From NCBI GenBank assembly GCA_016935175.1, contig JAFGRK010000006.1, positions 30,005 to 62,004 of the forward strand: DNA of 32,000 bases, read 5' to 3'. A program made the translations under genes and the position numbers. The stretch's first letter is position 1; the number at the start of each line of letters is the position of its first letter. Shown here piece after piece: positions 3,452-27,790 of this stretch. The DNA is from Candidatus Woesearchaeota archaeon (lineage in GTDB: Archaea; Nanobdellota; Nanobdellia; Woesearchaeales; SM23-78). The notes under the pieces are model-generated. The model had not been told where the DNA came from. It ran no database searches and saw only the letters and a program-made list of their open reading frames with translations.

Positions 3452-3463
3452 AGACTCTTTAAA

Positions 3464-3490
3464 TTTTTTTTATTTTACAATTTTTTATTT
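3464..3490 (+). terminator. oligo-T termination tract
   Basis: T8 and T6 runs lie directly after the stop at 3449-3451. Archaeal terminators are oligo-T. Confidence 0.4.
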
Positions 3491-3557
3491 AATTTAAGTA
3501 CAAAGCAAGAATAAATCCCGCCTCTAATCATGACAGGCAGGAATGGAGGAAAAGAAA

Positions 3558-4991
3558 ATGAGAAAGATAGTATTAATAGCAACGATAATGACGCTGCTAG
3601 TTGCTTTTCAAGTAGCTGCGCTCCCGACAGGATTGGTTGGATGGTGGCAGCTGGACCAGAATGCTGAAGACTCTTCGGACAATAATTTTGATGGGACACT
3701 GATAGGGACAGAAAATTATGAGGAAAGAGCCGGTTTTGGGTATGCTCACCTATTTGATGGGGCAACATACTTCCAGATACCTAGAGACCCATTGCTTGAG
3801 CCGCAAAACATAATATCAGTAGAGGCCTGGGTTAAAAGGGATGGCTCTCCAGGTGCTTACAAGCACATTGTTGCTAAGGGCTCAATTGGTTGTGGCTCAT
3901 CTTCCTATGCTTTTTACACTGGCGGCTCAGGGGGGCTATCATTCTATGTGACCACAGCTGGCTACAAATTATCCCCTTCAGTAGCACCAGCAGCAATCTG
4001 GGATAATGAGTGGCATCACATTGCCGGAACATATGACGGGGCTTACGTAAGATTGTATGTTGATGGCGTTGAGGTCGGAACTGGGACTAGTGCAACAGGA
4101 AACATAGTTTATCCTGTGGAAGACTTGTATTTCGGCAGGTTCAATGAAATGTGCGGAGGGTACAACTACTTCCAGTACAGCGGCTACCTTGATGATGTAA
4201 GGATATGGAACATCGCGTTGACCGCAGACCAGCTCGCTTACTACGACCAGGACTTTGACTGGGTATTTGGCGATGATGACAAATGCGCAGGAACAGTAGT
4301 TGATGTTCCAGATGAAAACCTAGGTGTCAACAGGCATGTCTGGTATGGAGGAGACTACTTTACCACATTAGTGCCTGCAAAAAAAGGAACATTCATTGAA
4401 GAAGCTTCACCTTTCTCAATGGCTGACACCCTAGGTTGCAGCTGTGAGCAAATACTTCAAAAACTAAAGGATGAGTTCGGAGCTCAAATGGTTGGCCACT
4501 GGAATTTTGGATGCAGCAAGAGCGTGATGGATGACTTCGTTCTCGACATGAGCGACGGAGTGTTTGACGGGCTTTACCTTCTTGATACGGTGACTGTTCC
4601 ATCAAACCAGAACATTGCATCTGCTGTTGAGGTTATCATGCCAGACCAAACCTACATATTAGAGGCAAGCGGCACTTATCAATACGCCACCTGGGCAGGA
4701 ATCCCTGTAGCTGACGCTAAATGCTCTTGGAGAGGAACAGCTGATCCTTTAGGGTATATCAACCAATGGCTAAGCGGCGACCTGCTTCCTTCACCTTACA
4801 CCAACTATCTAGAAATAAAAGTGAATGGGGGCGTAGTGGACTGGGGAGTTCCTTCAGGAACATGCAATGCCGACAACATATACAAGATGGAGATTACTGG
4901 TGTAGACCATTTAGATTTCAACATCTATGATGGCGGCGCTACTGGTGACAACAGCGGAAGCATAACTGTGAAAATCTTTGCACAGGTCTAA
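3558..4991 (+). CDS. secreted LamG (concanavalin-A-like lectin/glucanase fold) protein with shared C-terminal modules
   Basis: The track ORF starts at 3543, but GGAGG at 3545-3549 sits 8 nt before the ATG at 3558, giving MRKIVLIATIMTLLVAFQVAALP (signal peptide). The Laminin_G_3-type pattern LVGWWQLD..FDG..ISVEAWVK..WHHIAGTYDG..VRLYVDGVEV..YSGYLDDVRIWNIALTADQL is present. The C-terminal 240 aa are paralogous to aa 595-695 and 465-594 of the 831-aa protein. Confidence 0.85.
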   Translation: MRKIVLIATIMTLLVAFQVAALPTGLVGWWQLDQNAEDSSDNNFDGTLIGTENYEERAGFGYAHLFDGATYFQIPRDPLLEPQNIISVEAWVKRDGSPGAYKHIVAKGSIGCGSSSYAFYTGGSGGLSFYVTTAGYKLSPSVAPAAIWDNEWHHIAGTYDGAYVRLYVDGVEVGTGTSATGNIVYPVEDLYFGRFNEMCGGYNYFQYSGYLDDVRIWNIALTADQLAYYDQDFDWVFGDDDKCAGTVVDVPDENLGVNRHVWYGGDYFTTLVPAKKGTFIEEASPFSMADTLGCSCEQILQKLKDEFGAQMVGHWNFGCSKSVMDDFVLDMSDGVFDGLYLLDTVTVPSNQNIASAVEVIMPDQTYILEASGTYQYATWAGIPVADAKCSWRGTADPLGYINQWLSGDLLPSPYTNYLEIKVNGGVVDWGVPSGTCNADNIYKMEITGVDHLDFNIYDGGATGDNSGSITVKIFAQV

Positions 4992-5005
4992 AAACCCTTC
5001 CAAAC

Positions 5006-5031
5006 TTTTTCTTTTCTTTTTTTCTTCTTTT
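5006..5031 (+). terminator. T-rich termination tract
   Basis: ctttttcttttctttttttcttctttt follows the stop at 4989-4991. Confidence 0.4.
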
Positions 5032-5093
5032 CCCTTCCCAACAGAAACATTTATATTCTTTTAGGTTAATAAGTTATCAAGAGGTGTTTTTTT

Positions 5094-5666
5094 GTGAGGG
5101 ATAGGTTTGCTTTCAGCATCAGCATATTAGTGGTTGTAGCCTTGACTGCTATCATTGGCATGATCGGCGTCTTTGGCGCTGCTGGTGGAAGTGATTTCCA
5201 GGAGCAGCTCAGCGGCAATGGCTTCATCTTTCAGGCTGTGAGCGTGACTGACGGTGACAGGATTAAGGAGATTACCACTGCTAAGGTTTCTTTTGGCGGC
5301 AAGCTTGGCTTTGGCAAGGACAACGAACCTGCTGGCAATTGGCATGTGAAGTTCTTTGACGTTGGCAATAATGAGTTGGATGGCTCCCAGTTCCGCTCTG
5401 CAAAGATCATTTCCTTGAGGTTTGACGATGCTTGCGGCAAGTCTGCGCATTTCTCTGCTCTTGGCAAATTGGATAATGAGCTGGGGTGGAACTTATTGGT
5501 GGACGCCTCAGCAGCTGACCCTGTCTCTGGCCATGAGGCTAATATTAGGGTTAGGCTCAGCCACCCTGTTTATGGGGAGGTTTATGACAGCGCTTCTGAG
5601 TTTACAAGCGTTGATTATTGCATTGGCCAGACTTTAGTGGATTCTGGCAACCTGAACTTCAGGTGA
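5094..5666 (+). CDS. small membrane-anchored/secreted hypothetical protein
   Basis: GTG start with GAGGTG at 5081-5086. A TATA-like catttatatt lies at 5048-5057. The N-terminal hydrophobic segment is FSISILVVVALTAIIGMIGVFGAAGG. No recognisable domain. Confidence 0.65.
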   Translation: MRDRFAFSISILVVVALTAIIGMIGVFGAAGGSDFQEQLSGNGFIFQAVSVTDGDRIKEITTAKVSFGGKLGFGKDNEPAGNWHVKFFDVGNNELDGSQFRSAKIISLRFDDACGKSAHFSALGKLDNELGWNLLVDASAADPVSGHEANIRVRLSHPVYGEVYDSASEFTSVDYCIGQTLVDSGNLNFR

Positions 5667-5693
5667 TTTATTCTCGATAGCTAATAAGGAACA

Positions 5694-5701
5694 TTTATAA
5701 A
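5694..5701 (+). promoter_or_regulatory. TATA box (aacatttataaa) for the 5728 gene
   Basis: tttataaa is centred ~31 nt upstream of the ATG at 5728 with no SD. The same acatttata core recurs at 5048 and 22461. Confidence 0.5.
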
Positions 5702-5727
5702 TCATTATAGATTACCTTCTTATCACA

Positions 5728-7266
5728 ATGAAACATACAATAGTCATAAGCATATTTATGTTGTTTCTAGTGGCAGTTTTTTCTTCTGCCCAGCAAAGCG
5801 AAGAGTTAAGTGTTGAAGCAGGCACTACTCCTGGCAACTTGTTCTACGGCTTGGACAGGGCTATGGAGAACATCCAATTAGCCATGACAAGGGATCATTT
5901 CAAGAAGGCTGAGCTTCACTTGAAGCATGCTGAGGAAAGGTTGGCGGAGATGAACCAATTAATTGAGAGGAACAAGCTCAAGCACGTGGAGAACCTTGCC
6001 AAGGAGCATGATGAATCATTATCCAATGCAGAGGCTGAGGTCGAAGAGGCAGAAGCCAATGGCCAGGATGCTTCTGCAGTAAGGCAGCACGTGGCTGAGA
6101 TGAATCAAAAGCACGTCCTTGTGCTGCAAAGAGTGCTGGAAAAAGTGCCTGAGCAGGCCAAGGAGAGCATACAGAGAGCAATCAACAAATCCATATCTGG
6201 CTATCAGAAAGCAACCATGAACATGGAAGCCAAGGAGACTGGCAAGCCAGCAGATGTGCCTAAGCCAGAGAAAGGAGAGCAGGAAATGGAAAAGGAGCAA
6301 GGAGAAGAGCCTGGCCCTGAGCAGGAGATGGAACAGGAAGCCAAGGGCGAGGGCAAGCTCAAGATGCAAATCACTGACAAGCCTGCCTCTTTGAATATAT
6401 CTAAGCTCGAAGTCACCATCTCAAGCGTCAAAGTCCACACTTCATCATCTTCCTTTGAAGGCGAGACTTGCGAGAACGAGACTTACATTGATGAGGAATG
6501 CGAGAACGAAACAATTATCATCAACCAGACCTGCGAGAACATTACAGAAGTCCGAGAGGTATGCACTAACATAACAGAGATAGTCGAAGTCTGCACTAAC
6601 ATCACAGAAGAGCAGGAAGTGTGCGTGAATGAGACTTTCTATAACTACACCTGCGCAGAAGACGTTTGTGATGGAGGAGTATTTGTGGAAGATGAGTGCG
6701 TGAACGGAACGCTCATCCCTGGCGAGTGCACTAATGAGTCCTATGAAGCTCCAGTTTGCAGCATGGAAAACATAACAATAGGGCAAGAGTGCGTCAACGA
6801 GACTATTGTGACAGGCCAGGAATGCGTAAATGAGACTGTGATTATTGGTGAAACATGCGTTAATGAGACTGAAATCCAAGAGGTATGTGAAAACGTGACC
6901 AAGACCAGGATTGTCTGCACTGACGTCTCAGGAGACGGAACAGCTGGCTGGCACACAGTGGTTGACGAAGCCAAGACCTTTAACTTAATGGACTTGATAG
7001 ATGTCAAGGAATTTCTAGGTGAGACTACTCTTGGGGCTGGCAACTACCAGCAGATAAGGCTGATTGTGTCAGATGCAAAGCTTTGGATTAGCGGAGAGGA
7101 GAAAGCCTTGAAGATACCTAGCGGCAGCATAAAGCTCATAAAGCCTTTCAGCATCGAAGCAGGCCAGACCACTACCTTGACCATTGACTTTGACGCGCAC
7201 CAGTCAGTTCACCAGGCAGGCTCACAGTACATCATGAAGCCTACCATAAAGGTGATTGTAGAATAA
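5728..7266 (+). CDS. secreted DUF4382-family protein with an N-terminal helical region, an E-rich linker and an inserted Cys/N-glycosylation-sequon repeat array
   Basis: Signal peptide MKHTIVISIFMLFLVAVFSSAQQ. PGNLFYGLDRAMENIQLAM..AELHLKHAEERLAEM is a DUF5667-like helical region. LKMQITDKPA..LEVTISSVKVH ... GWHTVVDEAKTFNLMDL..GNYQQIRLIV..LKIPSGSIKLIKPFSIEAG..LTIDFDAHQSV..YIMKPTIKV matches the DUF4382 pattern. Confidence 0.8.
   Translation: MKHTIVISIFMLFLVAVFSSAQQSEELSVEAGTTPGNLFYGLDRAMENIQLAMTRDHFKKAELHLKHAEERLAEMNQLIERNKLKHVENLAKEHDESLSNAEAEVEEAEANGQDASAVRQHVAEMNQKHVLVLQRVLEKVPEQAKESIQRAINKSISGYQKATMNMEAKETGKPADVPKPEKGEQEMEKEQGEEPGPEQEMEQEAKGEGKLKMQITDKPASLNISKLEVTISSVKVHTSSSSFEGETCENETYIDEECENETIIINQTCENITEVREVCTNITEIVEVCTNITEEQEVCVNETFYNYTCAEDVCDGGVFVEDECVNGTLIPGECTNESYEAPVCSMENITIGQECVNETIVTGQECVNETVIIGETCVNETEIQEVCENVTKTRIVCTDVSGDGTAGWHTVVDEAKTFNLMDLIDVKEFLGETTLGAGNYQQIRLIVSDAKLWISGEEKALKIPSGSIKLIKPFSIEAGQTTTLTIDFDAHQSVHQAGSQYIMKPTIKVIVE
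6463..6921 (+). repeat. in-frame degenerate tandem repeats encoding ~15 C-x-N-x-(T/S) units
   Basis: Translation reads CENETYIDEECENETIIINQTCENITEVREVCTNITEIVEVCTNITEEQEVCVNET...CVNETIVTGQECVNETVIIGETCVNETEIQEVCENVTKTRIVC, with a period of ~10-11 aa. Confidence 0.85.
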
Positions 7267-7341: not shown

Positions 7342-7806
7342 CTATTTTTTCTTCTTAGCCTTAGAATCATCCTTATTAGGCTCTTCTGGCGGGCCGTGCT
7401 CACCGAAATGAGGGAGCCTGAGCACTGAGAAGGCAAGAAGGGTTGCTATGACTGCTAACATGTACCATCCAAAGCCAATAGCCATGCCTATGGCTGCTGA
7501 CATCCACACAGTAGCAGCAGTAGTCACTCCCCTAACAGAGCCTTTGTGCTGCATGATTATGCCTGCGCCAAGAAATCCTATCCCTGTCACTATGTTTGCA
7601 GCAATCCTTGTGGAAGAGTCAGAGCTTACATTCACTGATAGCATGGTGAAGAGCATGGCTCCCATGCAAACCAAGGTCTGGGTCCTAACACCTGCAGGCT
7701 TCTCCCTTGAGCCTCGCTCATAACCTATGAGAAAGCCAGCTATGAAAGCGAACACAAAGCCTATCAGGAACTTCAGCTCCAATGATATCATTGCTTCATC
7801 TATCAT
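7342..7806 (-). CDS. mgtC: MgtC/SapB family membrane protein
   Basis: GYERGSREKPAGVRTQTLVCMGAMLFTMLS..TGIGFLGAGIIM..VRGVTTAATVWMSAAIGMAIGFGWY is the MgtC signature. The start lies 22 nt after the gap stop, so it is probably co-transcribed. Confidence 0.85.
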   Translation of the reverse strand: MIDEAMISLELKFLIGFVFAFIAGFLIGYERGSREKPAGVRTQTLVCMGAMLFTMLSVNVSSDSSTRIAANIVTGIGFLGAGIIMQHKGSVRGVTTAATVWMSAAIGMAIGFGWYMLAVIATLLAFSVLRLPHFGEHGPPEEPNKDDSKAKKKK

Positions 7807-7828: not shown

Positions 7829-8842
<1,014 letters not shown>

Positions 8843-14287: not shown

Positions 14288-14797
14288 CTATTTGGTTGTA
14301 TAACTTTTGGCAAGGCTCTTGACTATTCCCTCGAGCCCTGCTGAAAACATCCTTGATGCGGCCTGAGCAATCATTCCTCTGCCATTATTCCTCATCTGCT
14401 TAAGCTGCTTGCCATTGACCAGCCTTATTCCCCTCTTCTGGGCGTATCTTATTGCCTTCCGGGTGTAACCTGTGTCTGTGACCATCAATCTTATCGCGCT
14501 CCTGCCGTTGTTGTTCTCAAGCTTATGGTAAAACTCAGCCACCTGCTTCACTCCGACATGCCTGTCCCTGAAGTGCGCCTTGCACTCTATGATGTAAAAC
14601 TGCTTGGTCTTAGGCTTGAACATCACCAGGTCATATTCCCTTTTCATTGCCTTGTCCTTGTCAAAGTCATAGTTCTTCATCCACTTGTTCTGATCAACCT
14701 TGACATAGCCGTTGCTTTCAAAAACGCCCCTTACATCGCGCTCAAAGCCATGGCCTAATTCGCCAGGAGTCATGTTCTTCTTGTTAGCATAGGTCAT
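14288..14797 (-). CDS. Mrr-cat / restriction-endonuclease-fold (PD-(D/E)xK) protein
   Basis: GHGFERDVRGVFESNGY..EYDLVMF..FYIIECKAH..VGVKQVAEFYHKL..RLMVTDTGYTRKAIRYAQKRGIRLVNGKQL follows the Mrr_cat (PF04471-type) order of motifs. Confidence 0.75.
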   Translation of the reverse strand: MTYANKKNMTPGELGHGFERDVRGVFESNGYVKVDQNKWMKNYDFDKDKAMKREYDLVMFKPKTKQFYIIECKAHFRDRHVGVKQVAEFYHKLENNNGRSAIRLMVTDTGYTRKAIRYAQKRGIRLVNGKQLKQMRNNGRGMIAQAASRMFSAGLEGIVKSLAKSYTTK

Positions 14798-15186: not shown

Positions 15187-15591
15187 TTAGATTGGCTCAA
15201 AATCTCCAGGAGCCCCATCGCCATCCTCAGGGCTGTCGCTGCTTCCATCTCCGTTGCTACCTCCTCCTGGGCTAGCAGCCTGGGCTTGCCCGTTCTTGCG
15301 GTGCTTGCCATTCATTATCAGGTAAGTGCCTACAGCCCCGGCAATCGCCCCAAGGCCGATGTTCTGAACCCTCTCGTTCATGCTGTACTTGTTTCCGTTG
15401 TTGATCTCCTCGCCGATATAGTCTCCTGTCACAGCGCCAAGTATGCTTCCCTTGGCAAGGGTCTTGTACTTGGACTTCTCCTCCTTGCTAAGGTTAGTCT
15501 TCTTGCTAAGGTAGCCTTCAAGAGGCTTGTCAGCCACCCATACTGCTGCTGCGCCTATAACTGCGTGCTTCAATAATTTCTCTAATCCCAT
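15187..15591 (-). CDS. small Gly-zipper membrane-associated protein with an acidic G/S/D tail
   Basis: SD AAGGTGA precedes the ATG at 15591. The sequence contains VIGAAAVWVA, ILGAVTGDYIG and IGLGAIAGAVGTYLI, and the tail reads SPGGGSNGDGSSDSPEDGDGAPGD. Confidence 0.65.
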   Translation of the reverse strand: MGLEKLLKHAVIGAAAVWVADKPLEGYLSKKTNLSKEEKSKYKTLAKGSILGAVTGDYIGEEINNGNKYSMNERVQNIGLGAIAGAVGTYLIMNGKHRKNGQAQAASPGGGSNGDGSSDSPEDGDGAPGDFEPI

Positions 15592-15630: not shown

Positions 15631-16164
15631 CTATTTTTTCTTGAAAACACTGTTAATCAAAGCATAAATGCCCAGTATCATGGCTTCGTGCATTATCACG
15701 TCAATCCCGCTGACAGGCTCATGCACTAATTTGCCGCTAGCTTTCCTAGCTATCTGGTAACTCGCATCAAGGGGATTGGCCACCATGCCGTCCCTGACAT
15801 TTTGCAGCACTTCCCCTGCTATGTATTCCAAAGGGTTAGAGCTGTTCTTCATTGGGTTGCCGCTGCCAGGAACTGCTGCATTAGGATTCTTCTTGGTCTT
15901 CCTGCTGCCCGTAGGAGCGCTGACCAGCTCATCAAGGTCATCATCTGCCCCTGCTGTGACTTTCTCTGGCAATGGAGACTTGTAATCCTGCGCGCTGCTC
16001 TTCTTAGGGTCATATCCATCAATGATGTTCTTCTTCACTCCCTCAATGACCTTGTCAACGAGCCCATCTGAGCCTGAGCCCTTGCCATCAGCCAGCTCTT
16101 TTGCTTCTTGCTTTCCTTCATAATCCTTTTTTGAATCCACAAAGTACTTTTTTGCCTGTGACAT
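15631..16164 (-). CDS. hypothetical protein (177 aa) with a C-terminal hydrophobic segment
   Basis: SD AGGAG lies upstream of the ATG at 16164. The N-terminal two-thirds look disordered and K/D/G/S-rich. The C-terminus IDVIMHEAMILGIYALINSVFKKK looks tail-anchor-like. Confidence 0.6.
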   Translation of the reverse strand: MSQAKKYFVDSKKDYEGKQEAKELADGKGSGSDGLVDKVIEGVKKNIIDGYDPKKSSAQDYKSPLPEKVTAGADDDLDELVSAPTGSRKTKKNPNAAVPGSGNPMKNSSNPLEYIAGEVLQNVRDGMVANPLDASYQIARKASGKLVHEPVSGIDVIMHEAMILGIYALINSVFKKK

Positions 16165-16212: not shown

Positions 16213-18003
16213 TCACATCACTCCGTTCCTGCCCATGTCCCCGACCACAATGCCGGGTATGTCTGTTTCATCTTTTATTGTGTATAGCTGGATTTTCTTG
16301 TGCCTGAACCTGCCTGTATCCCCTGAAAACCCTCCAAAGCAGAACCCTGATGCTATCTCAAGCACAGTTATCCTGTTAGTGTTCTTCTTGCTGACAAGCC
16401 CTCTCATGACTTCGTCATAATTGTAAATATAACCGTCTGATATGAGCATTATGTCAACTGAGTTCTTGTTCCTGGAAAGCACTTCGTGCATCTTCTCTGT
16501 CTCAAGCCTTGTGCCCCCTTCCTGGTAATGCAGTATGTTCTTGGAAACCTTGCGAGGGTCATCAAGAAAATTGCTAGCCTTGGTCTCGCTGCTGAAATTA
16601 ACCACAGCCACCTTGCTGCCTTTTCTCAGGTATTGCCTGGCAGCGCACACTCCTCCAAGGGCTGCGTATGAAAGCTCTTCTGCAGGGTCTGCCATGCTGC
16701 ATGACGAGTCAATCATTACCAGCAGGTCAGGAGTTCCCTTGGTTTTCTTCTCTCCCCGGCTGCCTTCTTCATTCCATGACTTGGAAATCTCAGGCAAGTA
16801 CTTGCCATAGCTGTTGAAAACATCAACCCTGGCAACAGGCTCATCAATCTCCCAGGGCTTTAGCTGCGTGCTCGCATTCTCCCCTCCTCCAATCACATCC
16901 CTGTCCTCGACCAGTATCTCATAGCTCTCTGCCTTGGCATTGTAAAAGTCAATTAGCGCATCCTTAGGGTCCCTTCCAGGGGCTCTGCTCCTGCCTGAGC
17001 CTGCGATTGGCAGCCCTTTCCTTGTTGCGCCAGGCTTGCCAACATCACTAAGCCCATCATCTTTAGCGCCTGTTTCTTGCCCTTTCAGCCTCTCCTGCTC
17101 TTGTCTCACAAAATCATGTAGCTTCTTGTAGTTATCAGGCTTCTCAAGCTCTTTTGCAATATCCTTTAATGCCCTTTCAACTTCTTTCTCGTCATAAGCC
17201 CCTAGGCCAAATCCATCAACCTTGGAAAGAGAGTAGCCTCCTGATTTGCCAGAGCTGCTTTTACCCTTGTTGCCTTCCTGCTTTTCCTGCTCATCAAGCT
17301 CTGCAAGTATCCTCGCAAACCTCTCAGCGTTCTGGTAAGCCCTTTTCCTGCTGGTGAATTTTATCTTTCCCAGCTCATCAACCTTCTGCCTCAAGCCCTT
17401 GCCTATTGTCGGCACATCAAAGTCCATGCCTGTCTTAAAGGCGTACAAGTGGCTGAGCACTGCCTCAGTATTTGAGCTCTTGTCAAGCTTCTGGTAAATC
17501 CTCCTTATCGAATCCTCTCTCTTGTCAAGCATGAGCTCCAAATTCAGGCACACGTCCATGAAATAGTTGGAAAGCTCATCCTTTTTCTCAGGGCAGGCTT
17601 TCTCAATCCTGTAAGTCAGCATTATCATGTTCTTCAAGTCCCAGGGCATTATCTTGTAATGGCCTGCCTCGTGCAATAGCAGCCCCCTGAATATGGTCTG
17701 GTAGTCAAGCCCCTTGCCCCTTAAGTGGTCAACAAATTTTTTCTGTATGCTTATCTCGTGGCTTTTCATGCTGATGCAAGCAGTCTCAACCTCATCTGAC
17801 TCAACAAGCTTAGGGAATTGCAGCTCAAAGCAGTAAAGCCTTTTCTGCACATAATCCCAGGCTTTCTCCAGCTCATCATCTATTGAAAGAGGCGAAGCTA
17901 TAGCAGCCTGCTGCTTAGCATCAGCAGCATTAACTGCAGCTTTCTTGCCTGCTTCTTGCCCTTTTTTTCTTGGCAATCCCAATAAATCCTCTAAAAACGA
18001 CAT
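16213..18003 (-). CDS. putative metallopeptidase (HExxH, DUF2201_N-like) + C-terminal vWA domain protein
   Basis: SD GGAGG lies 8 nt before the ATG at 18003. LLLHEAGHYKIMPW is encoded at 17659-17673. The vWA MIDAS motif LLVMIDSSCSMADP (DxSxS at 16696-16710) is followed by a VAVVNFSS..GGT..IMLISDG beta-strand pattern. Confidence 0.85.
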   Translation of the reverse strand: MSFLEDLLGLPRKKGQEAGKKAAVNAADAKQQAAIASPLSIDDELEKAWDYVQKRLYCFELQFPKLVESDEVETACISMKSHEISIQKKFVDHLRGKGLDYQTIFRGLLLHEAGHYKIMPWDLKNMIMLTYRIEKACPEKKDELSNYFMDVCLNLELMLDKREDSIRRIYQKLDKSSNTEAVLSHLYAFKTGMDFDVPTIGKGLRQKVDELGKIKFTSRKRAYQNAERFARILAELDEQEKQEGNKGKSSSGKSGGYSLSKVDGFGLGAYDEKEVERALKDIAKELEKPDNYKKLHDFVRQEQERLKGQETGAKDDGLSDVGKPGATRKGLPIAGSGRSRAPGRDPKDALIDFYNAKAESYEILVEDRDVIGGGENASTQLKPWEIDEPVARVDVFNSYGKYLPEISKSWNEEGSRGEKKTKGTPDLLVMIDSSCSMADPAEELSYAALGGVCAARQYLRKGSKVAVVNFSSETKASNFLDDPRKVSKNILHYQEGGTRLETEKMHEVLSRNKNSVDIMLISDGYIYNYDEVMRGLVSKKNTNRITVLEIASGFCFGGFSGDTGRFRHKKIQLYTIKDETDIPGIVVGDMGRNGVM

Positions 18004-18245: not shown

Positions 18246-19655
18246 CTAATCAATTTTCAAATAATCATAAAACACAGGATGGTCAACTTCTTTGGCCAGC
18301 TTTTGCGCCTCTGCAAGCTTGGCCTTGGCAACTGAGGGGCTGGATTTCTCGTTCATGGCATAAGCTTCCATCAGGCTGAACATGCTCGCTTGAGCATCCT
18401 TTTGCTTGGACCATCTCTGCATCATGTCTGCCACTGACTTCTTGGTGACGTACATCTGCAAAGGGTCTGACTCTTTCCTTCGCTCCTTCTTGAACCCTTC
18501 AATGTAGTTCTGGGTGAACCTCATCTTGTGGTTGAGCACAAAGGGCAATATGGCAGCCACGTGCTGCACACTAACTTCTTTTTCCCCAAGCAGCCAGGCA
18601 AGGCTTTGCATGTACTTGTTCTCTGCAAACGTATTCCTTACGGACTCACAATTAGTTTTCTTGCCGCACATCAATTCCTTGTAATGGCATCCCTCAACGC
18701 ATCCCTCATTGCTTCGCTTCTGCCCGAACATCATGCACGAGTATAATTCTGAAACTACAAAGTCAAGTAATAAGTCTGCCTCGTCGCTGATCCTGATTTT
18801 TCTTATCTCGTCATAAGCCTGGTTGAGCTCATCCCTTGTGAGCAATTCAAGCCCAGTCCTCTTCTCCAAAACTTTCTTGAAATCCTCTTGCACAGCAATC
18901 ATCTCTTTCCTCTTATCAGTGTAAGGCTTGTCGCTCTTCATGATGGCGTAGAGCTTGTCCTCAGACTCCTTGTGGTTGAGCATCCTTGCCCCGTGAGAGC
19001 TCCTCACATGCTGGTGGCGTATTATCCTTATAGGATTAACTCCTGGAAACTTGCTCTCATCACTCACATCGCACCTGTCAATCAATGCCTCGACAATCCT
19101 GTTGTTGCCTGAGTCCTTGTAGTTGATAGTGTTGAATATAGGCACTTCCCCCAGGTTGATAAGCTCGTTAAGGTATTGGAACTCTCCCTTGTCCATGCCC
19201 CACAAGAGCAGGTTTTGCTTTGACTCAGGTATCCTGTTGAGCTCATCAACGATCTTGGGCTCTAGCAGCACAAAATTAGACCAGATGGGCTTCTCATTTC
19301 CTTGGTTAAGCTGCCCAAGGTCTAGCCTTGCAGTCATCTTCTCTTGAGTTAATTCTGCGTGGCCTTTGAGGCTGCAGCTTGACATCACAGTCTTTGGGAT
19401 GCCATATGTCATGCTGAGCAATACTTCTGCAGAGGTGGTCTTTCCAAGGCCGTACTCTCCCATGCATAGCTGCTTTCCTCGGTTAACGCTTGTAAGCAAC
19501 CCTAGCAATAGGTTTGAGTTGAACCTGCTAGTCCCTACTTGCATATTAGAGTGGCAAAGGTAAAGGTTGTCCTTCACATAGCCGTACACTCTCAGCAATT
19601 TTTCCTGCTTTGATTTTGCTCCAGGATTGCTGCTCAACTGTTTCTGCTCGCTCAT
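18246..19655 (-). CDS. MoxR-like AAA+ ATPase with a Cys-cluster insertion in the lid region
   Basis: Walker A is GEYGLGKTT and Walker B is KIVDELNR, with ..SKQNLLLWGMDKGEFQ.. and FNTINYKDSGNNRIVEALIDRCDV matching the MoxR NP/DRF region. The lid carries VSVQHVAAILPFVLNHKM. C-X11-C-X3-C-X6-C-X5-C is encoded at 18648-18737. The ATG overlaps the upstream stop (ATGA). Confidence 0.8.
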   Translation of the reverse strand: MSEQKQLSSNPGAKSKQEKLLRVYGYVKDNLYLCHSNMQVGTSRFNSNLLLGLLTSVNRGKQLCMGEYGLGKTTSAEVLLSMTYGIPKTVMSSCSLKGHAELTQEKMTARLDLGQLNQGNEKPIWSNFVLLEPKIVDELNRIPESKQNLLLWGMDKGEFQYLNELINLGEVPIFNTINYKDSGNNRIVEALIDRCDVSDESKFPGVNPIRIIRHQHVRSSHGARMLNHKESEDKLYAIMKSDKPYTDKRKEMIAVQEDFKKVLEKRTGLELLTRDELNQAYDEIRKIRISDEADLLLDFVVSELYSCMMFGQKRSNEGCVEGCHYKELMCGKKTNCESVRNTFAENKYMQSLAWLLGEKEVSVQHVAAILPFVLNHKMRFTQNYIEGFKKERRKESDPLQMYVTKKSVADMMQRWSKQKDAQASMFSLMEAYAMNEKSSPSVAKAKLAEAQKLAKEVDHPVFYDYLKID

Positions 19656-21010
19656 TTGATCTCACCTTTAGCCTCAGCAACTTTCTTATCATCACCTTTA
19701 GCCCCAGCAGCCTTCTTATCATCGCCTTTAGCCTCAGCTTTATTCTCGCTTTTCTCCTCAGTTACAAACACTTTCTTGTCATTGTTATACTTCTCAAATG
19801 AGCTGTTAGCAGGCTTTTGCACTGTTTGAACTAGTTGCTCTGCCTGGTTGGCATTACTGGCATAAACATCGCTCGCATTGCTCGCCATCAACGGGCCTGC
19901 CTTTATCCTTGTAGGCACATAATCATTGTTCTCCACGATCGCAAAGAGAGTTCCTTTTTTCAGGTAGCCTTTTGCAACATATTCATCCACGAGCGAGTTA
20001 AGGAACCTCACGCAGCCATGGCTTGCAGCGCTTCCTAACTTTTCAGGCTCATTAGTGCCATGGGCCAGGATGTCTGATATCTCGTCAGGCTTGTAGTTGC
20101 CTTTAGAATCCCATCTTCCTGCATTTAGCCTTGCAGCTTTTGGGCCGTAAGCCAGCTCTCCGCCATATCTCCAATTGCTGCTGTCCTGAACAGACTGCAC
20201 CTCAAATATTCCGTTGGGTGTCTTATGGTCACCCGCCCTCTCCTTGTCTCCTGGGTTCATGCCTGTGCTAACATCAGCCTCATCAACCAGCTGGTATGCG
20301 AGCTTGTACACCTTTGCCCTTTGGGTTTCCTTATCCACAACAAAGACATACTCTGGCTTGCCTTTCTTTTCCTTACCAAGCATCATATCGAGGACTTTGG
20401 GGGTTTCGCTTGAATAAGCACGAGAGCTGTCTTTGCTTATGCTTGGCGCATTTACATCCACAACAGCTACATCCACAACATCATCAATTGTTCCTGGCTT
20501 TTCCACCTGAAGCCTTTCTGCCTGAGGTGATTTTTCTGCTCTAAAGGCCCCATTATCTGGCTGCAAAAATCCAGGCATGGCTGCGATTGCTTGCCAGGCT
20601 AGCCTGTTAGCATAAGGGCTTTGCACCAATTCATCCTCTGCTATCATAACCTGCTGCTTTGGATGCTCCTTGGCAGATCGCATAGCCTTGGCAAAAAGCC
20701 CATCATACATCTTGCCTGCGTTGAGCACTGAGAAAAACGTGCCAGCAGCTATCAAGCCTGCTCCTATTAAGCTGTATGCTCGCGCACCATGCTTCTTTTT
20801 ACTGGCAATATCAGGAACTAGCTCTTTTTTCTCTTGCAAGCCACTGGTTGGTTGCTGATCGCTCTTTGGCTGCTCATTCATTGGCTGTTGCCAGCTCCTT
20901 GGCTGTTGCTCACTAGCTGGATACCCAGCATTTCCTGCAATAGCTTCTGCTGCAGTAGCCTCTGATGGCTTTGCCCCGTAATCATTTATTCTTCCATCTA
21001 GCTCAGTCAT
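19652..21010 (-). CDS. membrane-anchored YkuD (L,D-transpeptidase-fold) domain protein with an intact catalytic motif
   Basis: The track start is a TTG at 21025. AAGGTGA lies 5 nt before the ATG at 21010. There is a single TM segment, AYSLIGAGLIAAGTFFSVL. The YkuD pattern reads VVDKETQRAKVYK..STGMNPGDK..GDHKTPNGIF..ILAHGTNEPEKLGSAASHGCVRFLNSLVDE (domain ~19928-20353). Confidence 0.8.
   Translation of the reverse strand: MTELDGRINDYGAKPSEATAAEAIAGNAGYPASEQQPRSWQQPMNEQPKSDQQPTSGLQEKKELVPDIASKKKHGARAYSLIGAGLIAAGTFFSVLNAGKMYDGLFAKAMRSAKEHPKQQVMIAEDELVQSPYANRLAWQAIAAMPGFLQPDNGAFRAEKSPQAERLQVEKPGTIDDVVDVAVVDVNAPSISKDSSRAYSSETPKVLDMMLGKEKKGKPEYVFVVDKETQRAKVYKLAYQLVDEADVSTGMNPGDKERAGDHKTPNGIFEVQSVQDSSNWRYGGELAYGPKAARLNAGRWDSKGNYKPDEISDILAHGTNEPEKLGSAASHGCVRFLNSLVDEYVAKGYLKKGTLFAIVENNDYVPTRIKAGPLMASNASDVYASNANQAEQLVQTVQKPANSSFEKYNNDKKVFVTEEKSENKAEAKGDDKKAAGAKGDDKKVAEAKGEIK
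19661..19738 (-). repeat. 30-nt in-frame tandem repeat (~2.6 copies) encoding KGDDKK(A/V)A(G/E)A
   Basis: ctcacctttagcctcagcaactttcttatc / atcacctttagccccagcagccttcttatc / atcgcctttagcctcagc. Confidence 0.85.
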
Positions 21011-21066
21011 TATATCACCTTTCAATAATCCCCTGTCGCTACTCTAACGCTAACTAACAGCTCTTT

Positions 21067-22311
21067 TTACCTGCTGAATCTCAGGCTTAGTGGCCTTAAT
21101 GAGTGCTCTATCACAAAAGCTGCATTGCTATAGTTTCCCCTGACTGTTGAGTCAAGGTCATTAAGGTCATGGTTAAGCATTATCACTCCGCCATTGGTGC
21201 TGTTCCTGCTTTCCCTTATGGCTTTTATCCTGTCAGGATAGTCTGCTCCGCAAAGCACTATTCCCTTGAAGTTGGTGGACAATCCAACAATGCCATCTCC
21301 GTACAATCCTGTGTGGACTGGGGAAAAGTTCCTGTACTCAGCAAGGAATACTCCTTCAGGAGTGGCTTTGTCTCCTGATTGCATCTTTTTATTAGGGTTG
21401 GTGCCTGTTGAGCAAGCGTATTGCTTGACAAATCCTAGCTTGCCATTGCTGCTCTTGTAAAGGCTCAGCTTGTTCTCATCCTTGTCAACGTATATAATAT
21501 AGGAGAAGTGGCTTGCGAACTTGCCCTCATACTTTGAAAGCGCTCCGGGCATTTTTTGTCCAGAAGCCTTTAAGACTTGCCCAGATTGATAGCTTGCCAC
21601 AGCTCTTTCTTCAAGGGCAGGTGATCTGCTTTGCAAAGAGGGCTGGGCTGCTGTAGTTGCCTGCGCTGGTGCGCTTGATGGGTCGTATGCATTGGCCTGC
21701 CTCATCTCATCTACCTTTCTCATGCCCTCCCTGACTTGCTGCTCAAGCTTTGAGATGTAATCATCCTTTTCACTCAGCCGAGCATCTTTCTCGCTAAGGG
21801 TGCTTGACAATCCATTGCTCTTCTCCTGCAATAGCTTGTTGTCCAGCTCTAGCTTCTTGGCTTTCTCAGCCTCTGCCTTTAATTCTTCCTGGGTCTTCTG
21901 GTAGTTAGCCTCTACTGCTGTCTTAGACTCTTCAAGCGTCAGGGCTTTTTGCTCCAGGCTGCTTATTTTTTCTTGCCCAGTCTTCCATTCAGCCACTGTC
22001 GGATTTATCTTTTCATTGTAGAACTCCCCTATCTTGGCATTCACGCTTCCGCAATGGGTTGCCCAGTAAACAGTCCCTCCCATCAAGAGGATTTGGATAC
22101 CGCGCTTCAGCTTGCCTTTTTCCGGCCATACAAATCTCTTGAATGCTCTTGCAGCCACGTATCCTGCTGTTGCAAGTGCTGCTCCGCCTATCAGGGCTTT
22201 TGCTCCCTTAGAAAACTTTGTCTTTGCGTTGATTGCTGCATATTGAGTCCCTGTTGCTTGAGCTTGCCCTTCTTGCGCTTGCTCAGTTCCAGTTGGTTCA
22301 GTATCGCTCAT
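21067..22311 (-). CDS. membrane-anchored coiled-coil protein with a degenerate (catalytically inactive-looking) YkuD-like domain
   Basis: The track start is a TTG at 22329. GGAGGGG lies 6 nt before the ATG at 22311. Two hydrophobic segments are followed by a long coiled coil. The C-terminus aligns to the neighbouring YkuD protein (VDKDENKLSLYK..STGTNPNKK..GDKATPEGVF), but His is replaced (IVLCGA) and SHGC is replaced by TNGG. Confidence 0.7.
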   Translation of the reverse strand: MSDTEPTGTEQAQEGQAQATGTQYAAINAKTKFSKGAKALIGGAALATAGYVAARAFKRFVWPEKGKLKRGIQILLMGGTVYWATHCGSVNAKIGEFYNEKINPTVAEWKTGQEKISSLEQKALTLEESKTAVEANYQKTQEELKAEAEKAKKLELDNKLLQEKSNGLSSTLSEKDARLSEKDDYISKLEQQVREGMRKVDEMRQANAYDPSSAPAQATTAAQPSLQSRSPALEERAVASYQSGQVLKASGQKMPGALSKYEGKFASHFSYIIYVDKDENKLSLYKSSNGKLGFVKQYACSTGTNPNKKMQSGDKATPEGVFLAEYRNFSPVHTGLYGDGIVGLSTNFKGIVLCGADYPDRIKAIRESRNSTNGGVIMLNHDLNDLDSTVRGNYSNAAFVIEHSLRPLSLRFSR

Positions 22312-22468
22312 TTTTTCCCCTCCATACAATTTTTAATTTTTGCATTAAGATTAGCATAGTGGAGGTGTTTAAAATAGCCTCTCACGAAAAAACCGGAGGA
22401 ATTACGGCGATGTCGGAAATACCTACAGGTTGCTCGTAATATAGAAAAGCGCCACCGCAACATTTATA

Positions 22469-25864: not shown

Positions 25865-27790
25865 ATGAAGATTTTATTCATTCACGCAGATTTCATAGAA
25901 TACGAGGCCAGGAAGAAGGCTATCAAGAGCGCAGAGGAAGTGCCAAAGGGCAAGGAGAAGGACAGGATGGAAGAGTGCCTTGTAGCCTTCACTGCTGTTG
26001 AGAAGGTTGATGAGGCCAACCCCTGCGGAGCTGCCAAAAAGGCTTTTGAGGAGATAAAGAAGATAAGCAGCCAGGTGCAAGCCAAGAATATCATGCTCTA
26101 CCCATACGCCCACCTGAGCCCTGACCTTTCCAAGCCAGAGCAGGCAGTCGAGGTCATGAAAGAGACTGAGAAGCTGCTCAAGGAAGCCAAGTACAACGTG
26201 AAAAGGGCTCCTTTTGGCTGGTACAAGTCATTCAACATAGCATGCAAGGGCCACCCATTGTCAGAATTGTCAAGCTCCCTCATCCCTGATGCAAAAGAGG
26301 GAGAAGAAGGAAAAGAAGGCAGCGAAGGAGGAGCAAAAGCATGTGAAGTGGTGTCTGAGGCCTTGAAGGCAGAGGAAAAGCTCAAGAGCTACTGGTACAT
26401 CATGGACGAGGATGGCAAGCTGCATGATGTTTCAGAATTCAATTTCTCAAAATACCCAAAGCTCAAGAAGTTTGCGTTCTATGAGAAGCAAAAGGACAGG
26501 ACCAGTGCCTGCGAGCCACTGCACATAGCGCTCATGAAAAAGCTAGAGCTGGTAGACTATGAGCCAGCCTCTGACTGCGGCAACATGAGATACTATCCTA
26601 AAGGCAGGCTGATCAAGAAACTGCTGGAAGAGTACGTGACTGACAAGGTAGTGGCTTACGGAGGAGTAGAGCTAGAGACTCCTGTAATGTATGACATGAA
26701 GCACCCGACCTTGGAAAAATACTTGCACAAGTTCCCTGCAAGGCAATACCAGATAACAAGCGACAAGAAGAATTTCTTCCTCAGGTTTGCAGCATGCTTT
26801 GGCCAGTTCCTGATAGCACATGACGCAGTTATCTCCTACAAGCACCTGCCGCTCAAGCTTTATGAGCTCACAAGGTACAGCTTTAGGCGAGAGCAAAGAG
26901 GAGAGCTATGCGGAGTTCGAAGGCTGAGGGCTTTCACCATGCCAGATGTTCATGCACTATGCTCAGACCTTGAGCAGGCAAAAGAAGAATACAAGATAAG
27001 GTTCCAATTATGCATGGACGTGCTTAAGGGCTGCGGCATTGAGCCAAAGGATTATGAGATGGGGCTCAGGGTGACAAAAGAGTTCTATGAGCAGAACAAG
27101 CCACTGATTGTAGGACTGGCAAAAAAGCTAGGCAAGCCGATCCTCGTGGAGATGTGGGATGAGAGGAAGTTCTACTTCATCCTCAAGTACGAGCTTAACT
27201 ATGTAGATTCAGTAGACAAGGCAGCTGCTCTATCCACAGACCAGATTGATGTTGAGAACGGGGAAAGGTATGACATGAGCTTCACAGACAAGGACGGCAA
27301 GAAGAAATACCCTGTAGTGCTTCACTGCTCGCCAAGCGGAGCCATTGAGAGAGTAATCTACACGCTGCTTGAATTGCAAGGGGAAAAAATACAAAAAGGG
27401 CAGGTGCCAGAGTTCCCATTGTGGCTTTGCCCAACCCAGGTAAGGCTTATACCTGTGTCTCCAGAAAAGCACCTTGAAAAGTGCAACGAGCTAGCCAAGG
27501 AGATATTCGGCGAAAGGATTAGGATTGACATCGATGATAACACAGAGTCAATTGGCAAGAGAGTTAGGCAGGCAGAGAAGGAATGGGTGCCTTACATCCT
27601 TGTAGTCGGGGATGAAGAGCTCAAGGCTGACAAGTTTAAGGCAAGAGTCAGGGGCAAGAAAGATGCAGTTGAGATGGGCAAGCACGAGCTTATCAAAGAG
27701 ATAAAGGAGAAGACTAAAGAATTCCCATGGAAGCCCTTGCCATTGCCCATGCTGCTTTCTAAAAGGCCGCAGTTCCAGACTATGAATTGA
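25865..27790 (+). CDS. thrS: threonine--tRNA ligase, archaeal type with an N-terminal editing domain
   Basis: SD AGGAGGG lies upstream. MKILFIHADFIEYEARKKAIK.. is the archaeal ThrRS editing-domain start. The class II core motifs FRREQRGELCGVRRLRAFTMPD and HCSPSGAIERVIY are present, followed by a C-terminal anticodon-binding region. Confidence 0.93.
   Translation: MKILFIHADFIEYEARKKAIKSAEEVPKGKEKDRMEECLVAFTAVEKVDEANPCGAAKKAFEEIKKISSQVQAKNIMLYPYAHLSPDLSKPEQAVEVMKETEKLLKEAKYNVKRAPFGWYKSFNIACKGHPLSELSSSLIPDAKEGEEGKEGSEGGAKACEVVSEALKAEEKLKSYWYIMDEDGKLHDVSEFNFSKYPKLKKFAFYEKQKDRTSACEPLHIALMKKLELVDYEPASDCGNMRYYPKGRLIKKLLEEYVTDKVVAYGGVELETPVMYDMKHPTLEKYLHKFPARQYQITSDKKNFFLRFAACFGQFLIAHDAVISYKHLPLKLYELTRYSFRREQRGELCGVRRLRAFTMPDVHALCSDLEQAKEEYKIRFQLCMDVLKGCGIEPKDYEMGLRVTKEFYEQNKPLIVGLAKKLGKPILVEMWDERKFYFILKYELNYVDSVDKAAALSTDQIDVENGERYDMSFTDKDGKKKYPVVLHCSPSGAIERVIYTLLELQGEKIQKGQVPEFPLWLCPTQVRLIPVSPEKHLEKCNELAKEIFGERIRIDIDDNTESIGKRVRQAEKEWVPYILVVGDEELKADKFKARVRGKKDAVEMGKHELIKEIKEKTKEFPWKPLPLPMLLSKRPQFQTMN

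Follow-up and report, generated by a model that had tools for sequence, protein, structure and literature searches.

A conserved pair of YkuD-fold membrane proteins in Woesearchaeota, one a predicted L,D-transpeptidase-family enzyme and the other without the catalytic dyad

We analysed a stretch of 32,000 nucleotides from Candidatus Woesearchaeota archaeon (contig JAFGRK010000006.1, positions 30,005 to 62,004 of the forward strand), which we call the window and to which positions refer unless a locus is named. Two adjacent genes of the window, A and B, encode membrane proteins with the fold of YkuD, the L,D-transpeptidase (Ldt) family domain. A has the complete set of catalytic residues, and B has neither the catalytic His nor the nucleophilic Cys. 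We propose that A and B form a conserved, vertically inherited two-gene surface module, in which a catalytic YkuD enzyme works with a non-catalytic YkuD-fold partner, most plausibly on bacterial peptidoglycan; we give this reading about an even chance (probability of roughly 0.5). The initial annotation, made from the letters of the sequence, had pointed to adjacent YkuD-fold genes in an archaeon, one catalytically intact and one without His and Cys, and Pfam, profile-profile comparison and Foldseek all bear this out. The features of the pair are as follows.

19652..21010, minus strand: gene A, 452 amino acids, type-II membrane protein with a canonical YkuD (L,D-transpeptidase family) domain (Pfam, NCBI name, AlphaFold2 (AF2) model, Foldseek)
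20723..20773, minus strand: A residues 80-96, the only transmembrane helix, positively charged on its N-terminal side (hydropathy, AF2)
19916..20362, minus strand: A residues 217-365, YkuD catalytic domain, with His317 at 20060-20062, Cys333 at 20012-20014 and Arg335 at 20006-20008
21011..21066, minus strand: B-A spacer of 56 nucleotides, with an AGGTGA ribosome-binding site 6 nucleotides ahead of the A start
21067..22311, minus strand: gene B, 414 amino acids, membrane-anchored coiled-coil protein with a C-terminal, predicted catalytically dead YkuD-fold domain (family alignment, profile-profile comparison, AF2, Foldseek)
22042..22203, minus strand: B residues 37-90, two weakly hydrophobic helices around the K/R-rich loop KRFVWPEKGKLKRG (membrane hairpin), with a conserved THC motif (hydropathy, charge count, AF2)
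21691..22041, minus strand: B residues 91-207, long single helix or coiled coil of ~115 residues (AF2)
21082..21510, minus strand: B residues 268-410, YkuD-fold domain without the dyad (profile alignments, Foldseek)
21403-21414, 21244-21255 and 21187-21198, minus strand: B motifs CSTG, LCGA (Cys354 at the His position) and TNGG (Gly375 at the Cys position), respectively
22312..22468, minus strand: upstream intergenic region of the pair, A/T-rich, with GGAGG ahead of the B start

According to the list of open reading frames, both genes lie on the minus strand, with ATG starts at 21010 (A) and 22311 (B), preceded by the Shine-Dalgarno-like sequences AGGTGA and GGAGG, respectively. A and B are almost certainly co-transcribed; no terminator-like site was found in the spacer between them. 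The A stop codon overlaps the ATG of the downstream AAA+ gene (ATGA), and beyond the upstream intergenic region a nucleotidyltransferase-like gene diverges from the pair on the opposite strand. NCBI names A 'L,D-transpeptidase' and B hypothetical protein JXB28_01215, and NCBIfam has no family-level name for either.

A is, by every sequence and fold criterion that we applied, a member of the YkuD/Ldt family, and is predicted to be active. It matches PF03734 with 50.9 bits (E 3.4e-13; curated cut-off 23.4) over model positions 2-135 of 146. The catalytic pattern H-x(14-17)-[ST]-x-G-C, together with the Arg at Cys+2 that is typical of transpeptidases, is present in the motif HGTNEPEKLGSAASHGCVR at 20006-20062, and His317, Gly318, Cys333 and Arg335 are invariant across 38 aligned relatives. 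The AF2 model of the domain (residues 221-365) has a predicted local distance difference test score (pLDDT) of 91-98. Foldseek finds 67 PDB matches to it at E<=1e-3, the 50 of them that were listed all being YkuD-fold proteins, with Bd1075, Pgp2, B. subtilis YkuD, Csd6, DpaA, Ldtfm and LdtMt1/2 as the best. The SHGC match on which the initial annotation relied is, therefore, genuine rather than fortuitous. As judged from these residues and the modelled fold, A carries everything known to be necessary for YkuD acyl-enzyme chemistry. Simple hydropathy and charge counts give A one transmembrane helix with a K/R-rich N-terminal flank, predicting an N-in/C-out orientation, and predict the same type-II topology for six of the six A orthologues examined.

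A belongs to the Arg type, the classical Ldts; in a word search its closest matches from outside the archaea are small Bacteroidales Ldts and a few proteins of Deltaproteobacteria and Kiritimatiellota. With the classical Ldts (B. subtilis YkuD, E. faecium Ldtfm, M. tuberculosis LdtMt1/2 and E. coli LdtA-E; PF03734) A shares the fold (Foldseek E 1e-8 to 1e-6), the H-x15-C spacing within HGT...SHGC and the Arg two residues past the Cys; its location, too, would be extracytoplasmic and membrane-anchored. It differs from them in its host, an archaeon not known to make murein, in having no LysM, PG-binding or Ig-like accessory domains, and in its ~35-residue insert ahead of the HGT motif, its long low-complexity linkers and its dead-paralog partner. 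The C-terminal tail of A (19655-19915, minus strand) is K/E/A-rich and of low complexity, with a terminal KGEIK that is common to the relative P0002 and nearly matched in P0003 (GNEVK). Three A-type orthologues from other loci (L005:5602-6987, L008:10912-11784 and L017:6486-7388) start with M(T/I)RI(K/N)LL..EK.K, a start not seen in the A of the window; we take it to resemble the INLLP N-terminus of bacterial PilN that binds PilM, and it could be a cytoplasmic docking motif.

B by itself stays below the PF03734 threshold (21.2 versus 23.4 bits) and matches only the first 58 model positions; farther members of its family exceed the threshold over the whole YkuD model. Compared profile to profile, the B and A families match with a probability of 97.2% (E 4e-11), and the B-family profile matches PDB 7o21 (Bdellovibrio Bd1075) at 4e-15 and Csd6 at 1.8e-4. 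In the AF2 model the C-terminal domain of B has a pLDDT of mostly 64-89, lower in residues 329-349, and all 15 of its best 15 Foldseek PDB matches have the YkuD fold. Three independent alignments place Cys354 in the catalytic His column, Gly375 in the nucleophile Cys column and Ile377 in the Arg column, so the correspondences proposed earlier, LCGA for the His motif (xHGx) and TNGG for SHGC, are correct. Since the catalytic His and Cys are both missing, B would be unable to use the mechanism of YafK, Csd6, Pgp2 and Bd1075. We, thus, assign B to the YkuD fold superfamily as a member that lacks the catalytic residues and is predicted not to be an L,D-transpeptidase; it appears incapable of YkuD acyl-enzyme chemistry, yet its cleft is preserved.

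The N-terminal half of B is organized differently from that of A. Hydropathy marks two hydrophobic segments, residues 37-53 and 74-90, which AF2 models at low confidence as helices 38-61 and 68-85. The long helix (residues 91-207), whose only matches in NCBIfam and PADLOC are of the coiled-coil type (SMC, Rad50, LmuB), is followed in the model by a disordered linker and then by the YkuD-fold domain. The earlier view that both proteins are type-II-like, therefore, holds for A, with its one transmembrane helix and K/R-rich flank, but not for B, with its two weak hydrophobic segments and K/R-rich loop. For B the positive-inside rule favours the loop inside and the domain outside, and in the divergent B-like proteins of loci L019, L020, L027 and L028 a single transmembrane helix precedes the domain; we infer that the domain of B lies outside the membrane. 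The B of the window ends 4 residues past the YkuD-fold domain. C-termini of the B family have a conserved E-x-x-x-R-P-[LIV], often followed by K or R. A C-terminal Lys acceptor like that of Braun's lipoprotein was considered for B and set aside as speculative: ~40% of the ends are basic (20 R and 9 K of 73), but the B of the window ends in Arg and other endings are common in the family.

B is not an isolated oddity. An exhaustive search of 1.84 billion cluster representatives with the B-family profile gave 872 matches at E<=1e-3, of which 123 reach <=1e-10 and 14 reach <=1e-30; a word-indexed search with the single protein had found only 6 relatives, badly underestimating the size of the family. 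About 70 of the best 150 representatives lack His/Cys. The rest of the top matches are active enzymes with Val/Ala instead of Arg after the Cys, a substitution that marks the YafK/Csd6/Bd1075 type (PMC8938487). For analysis of individual columns we used 217 proteins from all searches plus 3 locus translations, of which 74 lack the His and/or the Cys; in the His/Cys-less family the His is replaced by C, S, T, A, N or V, and the Cys by G, S or A. All His/Cys-less members with a named source are archaeal (Woesearchaeota, Nanoarchaeota, 'archaeon' or SM23-78). In a GTDB genome scan, seven archaeal loci rank above Bdellovibrionia and Bacteroidota. Among active enzymes, those most closely related to B come from bacteria, namely Bdellovibrionia, Bacteroidota and Deltaproteobacteria. 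Four family members (P0096, P0102, P0103 and P0133) keep the nucleophile Cys and have a Cys in the His column as well (as in HCGTLGCV), and may represent an evolutionary stage on the way from active YafK-like enzymes to the dead family.

The most conserved part of B is its cleft, with the motifs GIVLCGA, RI.A and TNGG. Residues invariant in the close family cluster in the former active-site loops: G350, I351, L353, C354, G355 and A356; R361, I362 and A364; and N373, G374 and G375. The ratio of non-synonymous to synonymous substitution (dN/dS) is 0.21-0.26 for B and 0.19-0.24 for A, and the B reading frame is intact in all loci examined. Because B is widely conserved and under purifying selection with its catalytic residues lost, its sequence marks it as a conserved pseudo-enzyme-type protein and no decaying copy; pseudogene decay is ruled out by the family conservation and the dN/dS. 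The initial annotation had called B 'degenerate', which is right in that the dyad is lost, but not in any sense of decay, since purifying selection acts on B and its DPANN family is large and conserved. Database labels for the family read 'hypothetical' or, misleadingly, 'L,D-transpeptidase family protein'.

B is closest, in both sequence and fold, to the hydrolytic, non-Arg branch of the family, namely YafK/DpaA (LdtF), Csd6, Pgp2 and Bd1075 (PDB 8ikr, 4xzz, 6xj6 and 7o21), with which it shares the 'C-S-T-G' and GDKATPEG motifs and a non-Arg residue after the former Cys position. Unlike these proteins it has no His/Cys and no NTF2-like domain, and a membrane hairpin with a ~115-residue coiled coil replaces the signal peptide. 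Neither protein of the pair fits the L,D-carboxypeptidases of the Csd6/Pgp2/Bd1075 type: the NTF2-like domain is found in neither, B has no dyad, and A has Arg, not Ala/Val, at Cys+2. With database size kept equal, active bacterial enzymes of the non-Arg type reach a median of 60.7 bits against the B profile, and the A family only 27-42 bits. Because the B profile favours bacterial YafK-like enzymes over the A family, we regard A and B, on sequence, as old and distant paralogs, B being nearer to the bacterial YafK/Csd6/Bd1075 branch than it is to A. The same scores (27-42 versus ~61 bits) rule out a recent tandem duplication.

A and B are co-inherited. B followed by A on the same strand, with a 0-56-nucleotide gap or an overlap, is found in the window and in loci L002, L005, L008, L011, L012/L016, L015 (SM23-78), L017, L018 and L019, as well as in all same-clade metagenome loci with room downstream (L029-L038). 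The order persists in the highly divergent L027 and L028, where all surrounding genes are different and both proteins have helical cytoplasmic N-termini of ~270-300 residues. Near the pair these two loci carry a third, active YkuD gene, which in L027 (9925-12936) encodes 1003 amino acids with a very long acidic linker, and in L028 (9935-10489) 184 amino acids with a twin-arginine-like signal; these genomes, thus, have an expanded set of YkuD genes. The sole exception to pairing is L020 (Woesearchaeota ARS73), where a convergent S-adenosylmethionine synthetase gene follows the B-like gene. The L020 B-like protein has ITSS...TNGG and a Q-rich N-terminus of 230 amino acids.

In the wider clade of the window the pair sits in a stable block, in the order RtcB, threonyl-tRNA synthetase (ThrRS), Lrp/AsnC, B, A, the small protein o177, the glycine-zipper protein o134, an Mrr-like protein, a Pro/Thr-rich protein, M50, PCMT, GAPDH and MgtC. 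The recurrence of this block, therefore, speaks for vertical inheritance rather than recent transfer. The contig itself is archaeal (Ca. Woesearchaeota), as the initial annotation had supposed, because the ThrRS of the window has the archaea-specific editing domain PF08915 (E 1.7e-52), RtcB ligase is also encoded, and NCBI files A and B alike under Candidatus Woesearchaeota archaeon, where they share a contig of 83 kb. GC content is even throughout the region. A bacterial contig is, thus, ruled out by the synteny and the archaeal markers, and a recent horizontal transfer is rejected as unlikely on the same grounds.

A pair of similar build exists in Bacteroidota (Prolixibacteraceae, Mangrovibacterium; L024:2703-4552, L025:5335-7254 and L026:1834-3737), where an active YafK-like protein with a transmembrane helix and a long helix (EIHGMGGKGVDWTDGCVA) is followed by a classical Ldt. 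The order is the same as in the archaea, an anchor, helical region and non-Arg YkuD domain first and a transmembrane-anchored Arg-type YkuD second, but both bacterial genes keep His and Cys. Similarity is weak, with E 1e-5 for B against the first gene and A not detectably closer to the second than to other Ldts. A common origin of the cassette, therefore, finds no support beyond the similar architecture.

How might the two proteins work? A, as a type-II anchored protein, would present outwards a YkuD domain with the Cys-His dyad and the Arg that characterises L,D-transpeptidases. If A follows the chemistry of its family, its peptide substrate would end in a D-amino acid; Cys333, attacking the carbonyl of the L-centre, would expel this last residue. 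The resulting thioester would be resolved by an amine, giving a cross-link or tethering, or by water, as in an L,D-carboxypeptidase. B, as a non-catalytic partner, would bind the same ligand and/or A, and position or regulate A. The ligand would be a peptidoglycan stem peptide of a bacterial host or neighbour, used for attachment, remodelling or scavenging. Woesearchaeota are not known to make murein or a polymer ending in an L-centre-D-amino acid. Because no murein synthesis is known here and relatives carry extracellular murein lytic transglycosylases, we favour the peptidoglycan of a bacterial host or neighbour as the most plausible ligand, although the substrate is the least secure part of our reading. 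Those large transglycosylases, encoded by Woesearchaeota and Pacearchaeota, have been read as a sign of bacterial hosts (Castelle et al. 2021, PMC8204110; Vigneron et al. 2022, PMC9723730). They resemble the pair in being bacterial-type, peptidoglycan-directed, widespread in the same lineage and interpreted as tools for a bacterial wall; they differ in their unrelated fold and in acting on the glycan strand rather than the peptide stem, and the window does not encode them. As to the partnership, we infer that A and B cooperate, by analogy with E. coli LdtF (YafK), which is without the Arg and itself no transpeptidase but raises 3-3 cross-linking by LdtD and LdtE (PMC6428754). Such stimulation of classical Ldts is the role that we propose for B.

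Several points weigh against a host-directed module. None of the archaeal members examined has a LysM, SPOR or PG_binding module fused to it. The setting among housekeeping genes gives the pair the look of a core trait, which a role in the archaeon's own envelope fits at least as well. Cultured DPANN have archaeal hosts, and none is known to have a bacterial one. As to the pair itself, in L020 the B-like gene (L020:5125-6429) has no A-type gene in the 1.9 kb available downstream, and the topology of the B of the window is ambiguous, given its two weak hydrophobic helices modelled at low confidence.

A more specific version of the host-directed module is that the pair is an inter-domain attachment device. 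A would use bacterial stem peptides as acyl donors, remodelling the wall or tethering an archaeal surface protein to it, while the dead domain of B, on its coiled-coil stalk, would serve as a stem-peptide 'reader' that docks the archaeon. E. coli LdtA-C, which tether Braun's lipoprotein, provide a model for covalent tethering by A. We regard this version as speculative and rather unlikely.

Of the alternatives, the one that survives best is that A cross-links or trims a non-murein substrate of the archaeon itself (S-layer, other surface proteins or a peptide-bearing polymer) with B as a scaffold, a sortase- or transglutaminase-like use of YkuD. The vertically inherited core position beside housekeeping genes agrees with it, as do the clustering with a glycine-zipper membrane protein and a Pro/Thr-rich protein, and the lack of PG-binding domains in the archaeal members examined. 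So do the several YkuD paralogs per genome (L027 and L028), and the large cytoplasmic coiled-coil N-termini of divergent A and B suggest an envelope-spanning structural complex. However, every characterised YkuD enzyme uses a donor ending in an L-centre-D-amino acid (PMC12729407), and A keeps the Arg and the His/Cys geometry of the murein enzymes. As no L-centre-D-amino-acid substrate is known in DPANN archaea, a role on the archaeon's own envelope, though a real possibility, strikes us as the less probable one.

It is also possible, but improbable, that B now serves a purpose of its own, such as adhesion or lectin-like binding, with no bearing on A, and that adjacency reflects conserved gene order only. 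A and B are indeed distant paralogs from different YkuD branches, B stands alone in one locus, and gene order in the lineage is well conserved generally, for unrelated genes too. Conserved order, however, does not readily explain why the pair persists in L027 and L028 amid entirely different surroundings, why in several loci the stop codon of one gene overlaps the start of the other or lies almost against it, or why each protein gained a long cytoplasmic N-terminus in the divergent loci, a parallel change of architecture.

B might still be an enzyme with a rewired active site, in which Cys354, at the former His position, acts as the nucleophile. Cys fills the His column in about two-thirds of the His/Cys-less family, the possible intermediates P0096, P0102, P0103 and P0133 have Cys at both positions, and GIVLCGA around Cys354 is invariant in the close family. 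Many members, though, among them those of the pair-bearing loci L011 (Asn) and L028 (Thr), have Ser, Thr, Ala, Asn or Val in place of this Cys, and we saw neither a conserved His nor another conserved general base in the domain. Because the Cys is replaced in so many pair-bearing members, we consider a Cys354 nucleophile very unlikely.

That the pair is an artefact, whether through wrong binning of a contaminating bacterial contig or through a very recent, functionless horizontal acquisition, is hardly credible, even though the YkuD family is overwhelmingly bacterial and so are the nearest active relatives of B, given the archaeal-type ThrRS and RtcB on the same contig, the recurrence of the arrangement in more than 12 independent archaeal assemblies with TFIIB, eEF1A or L35Ae nearby, the uniform regional GC content, the purifying selection on both genes, and the synteny, which already refutes it.

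Downstream of the pair, the window contains the following genes.

18246..19655, minus strand: MoxR-like AAA+ ATPase (weak AAA_5 and AAA_lid_2 matches)
16213..18003, minus strand: VWA-like partner of the AAA+ protein, 596 amino acids, with a DSSCS metal-site motif and an N-terminal HEAGH (metallopeptidase-like)
15631..16164, minus strand: o177, small protein with ~80 conserved C-terminal residues, directly downstream of A where the AAA/VWA genes are missing
15187..15591, minus strand: o134, glycine-zipper membrane protein conserved in the cluster (sequence, distribution)
14288..14797, minus strand: Mrr-like nuclease-fold gene (Mrr_cat, PD-(D/E)xK), conserved downstream of the pair (Pfam, synteny)

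No Pfam model recognises the 596-residue VWA-like protein. The AAA/VWA genes are confined to the subclade of the window, L002, L005 and L011, and are missing in L008, L012, L015, L017 and L018. Because this insertion is limited to one subclade, we place both genes outside the core module, and the subclade-only distribution rules out an obligate link of the pair with a MoxR-AAA/VWA system. At least eight loci encode a small Mrr_cat protein at a distance of a few genes downstream of the pair, and the otherwise non-syntenic L027 is among them. A known anti-phage defence system found no support, as PADLOC matched B only through coiled-coil noise and the nuclease-like gene only through generic Mrr/PD-(D/E)xK models. 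No tRNA or Rfam elements were found in the window.

The ThrRS gene (window 25865-27790, plus strand) has PF08915 in the window and L002; L005, L007 and L008 have tRNA_SAD (PF07973) instead (L005:457-2370, L008:5929-7953). The type of ThrRS was, apparently, replaced between related Woesearchaeota at the same syntenic position. A bacterial-type class I GAPDH (7829-8830, minus strand; Gp_dh_N/C) and an MgtC-family protein (7342-7806, minus strand) lie within the archaeal syntenic block. On the plus strand, 956-7266 encodes a run of probable surface or secreted proteins: one of 831 amino acids with a MopE-like metal-binding motif, one with a Laminin_G_3/ConA-like lectin fold, and one with DUF5667 and DUF4382. 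This run fits a lifestyle of surface interactions.

In the literature searched we came upon no account of YkuD proteins from DPANN archaea, and none of an active YkuD enzyme paired with a pseudo-enzyme of the same fold. A survey from 2021 reported murein cross-linking and recycling enzymes to be absent from archaea (PMC10117817), and a review of Ldts from 2025 makes no mention of archaea. The enzyme family and its chemistry are familiar; what is not familiar is the lineage, the pairing with a lineage-specific dead paralog, and the biology that this implies. Enzymes of the L,D-transpeptidase family are regarded as bacterial wall enzymes. The lineage described here is archaeal, large and uncultured, and one of its conserved, vertically inherited core genes encodes a canonical YkuD enzyme that is apparently active. 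Dozens of protein clusters are due for a correction of their annotation. The pair can be cloned and tested with carbapenem probes, offering a route to the use of peptidoglycan chemistry by DPANN archaea and to the identity of their hosts, and it is a natural pseudo-enzyme/enzyme system for studies of regulation in the YkuD family. If the pair were indeed an attachment device, it would provide the first molecular handle on episymbiosis between Woesearchaeota and bacteria, and the first natural complex of a YkuD pseudo-enzyme with its enzyme.

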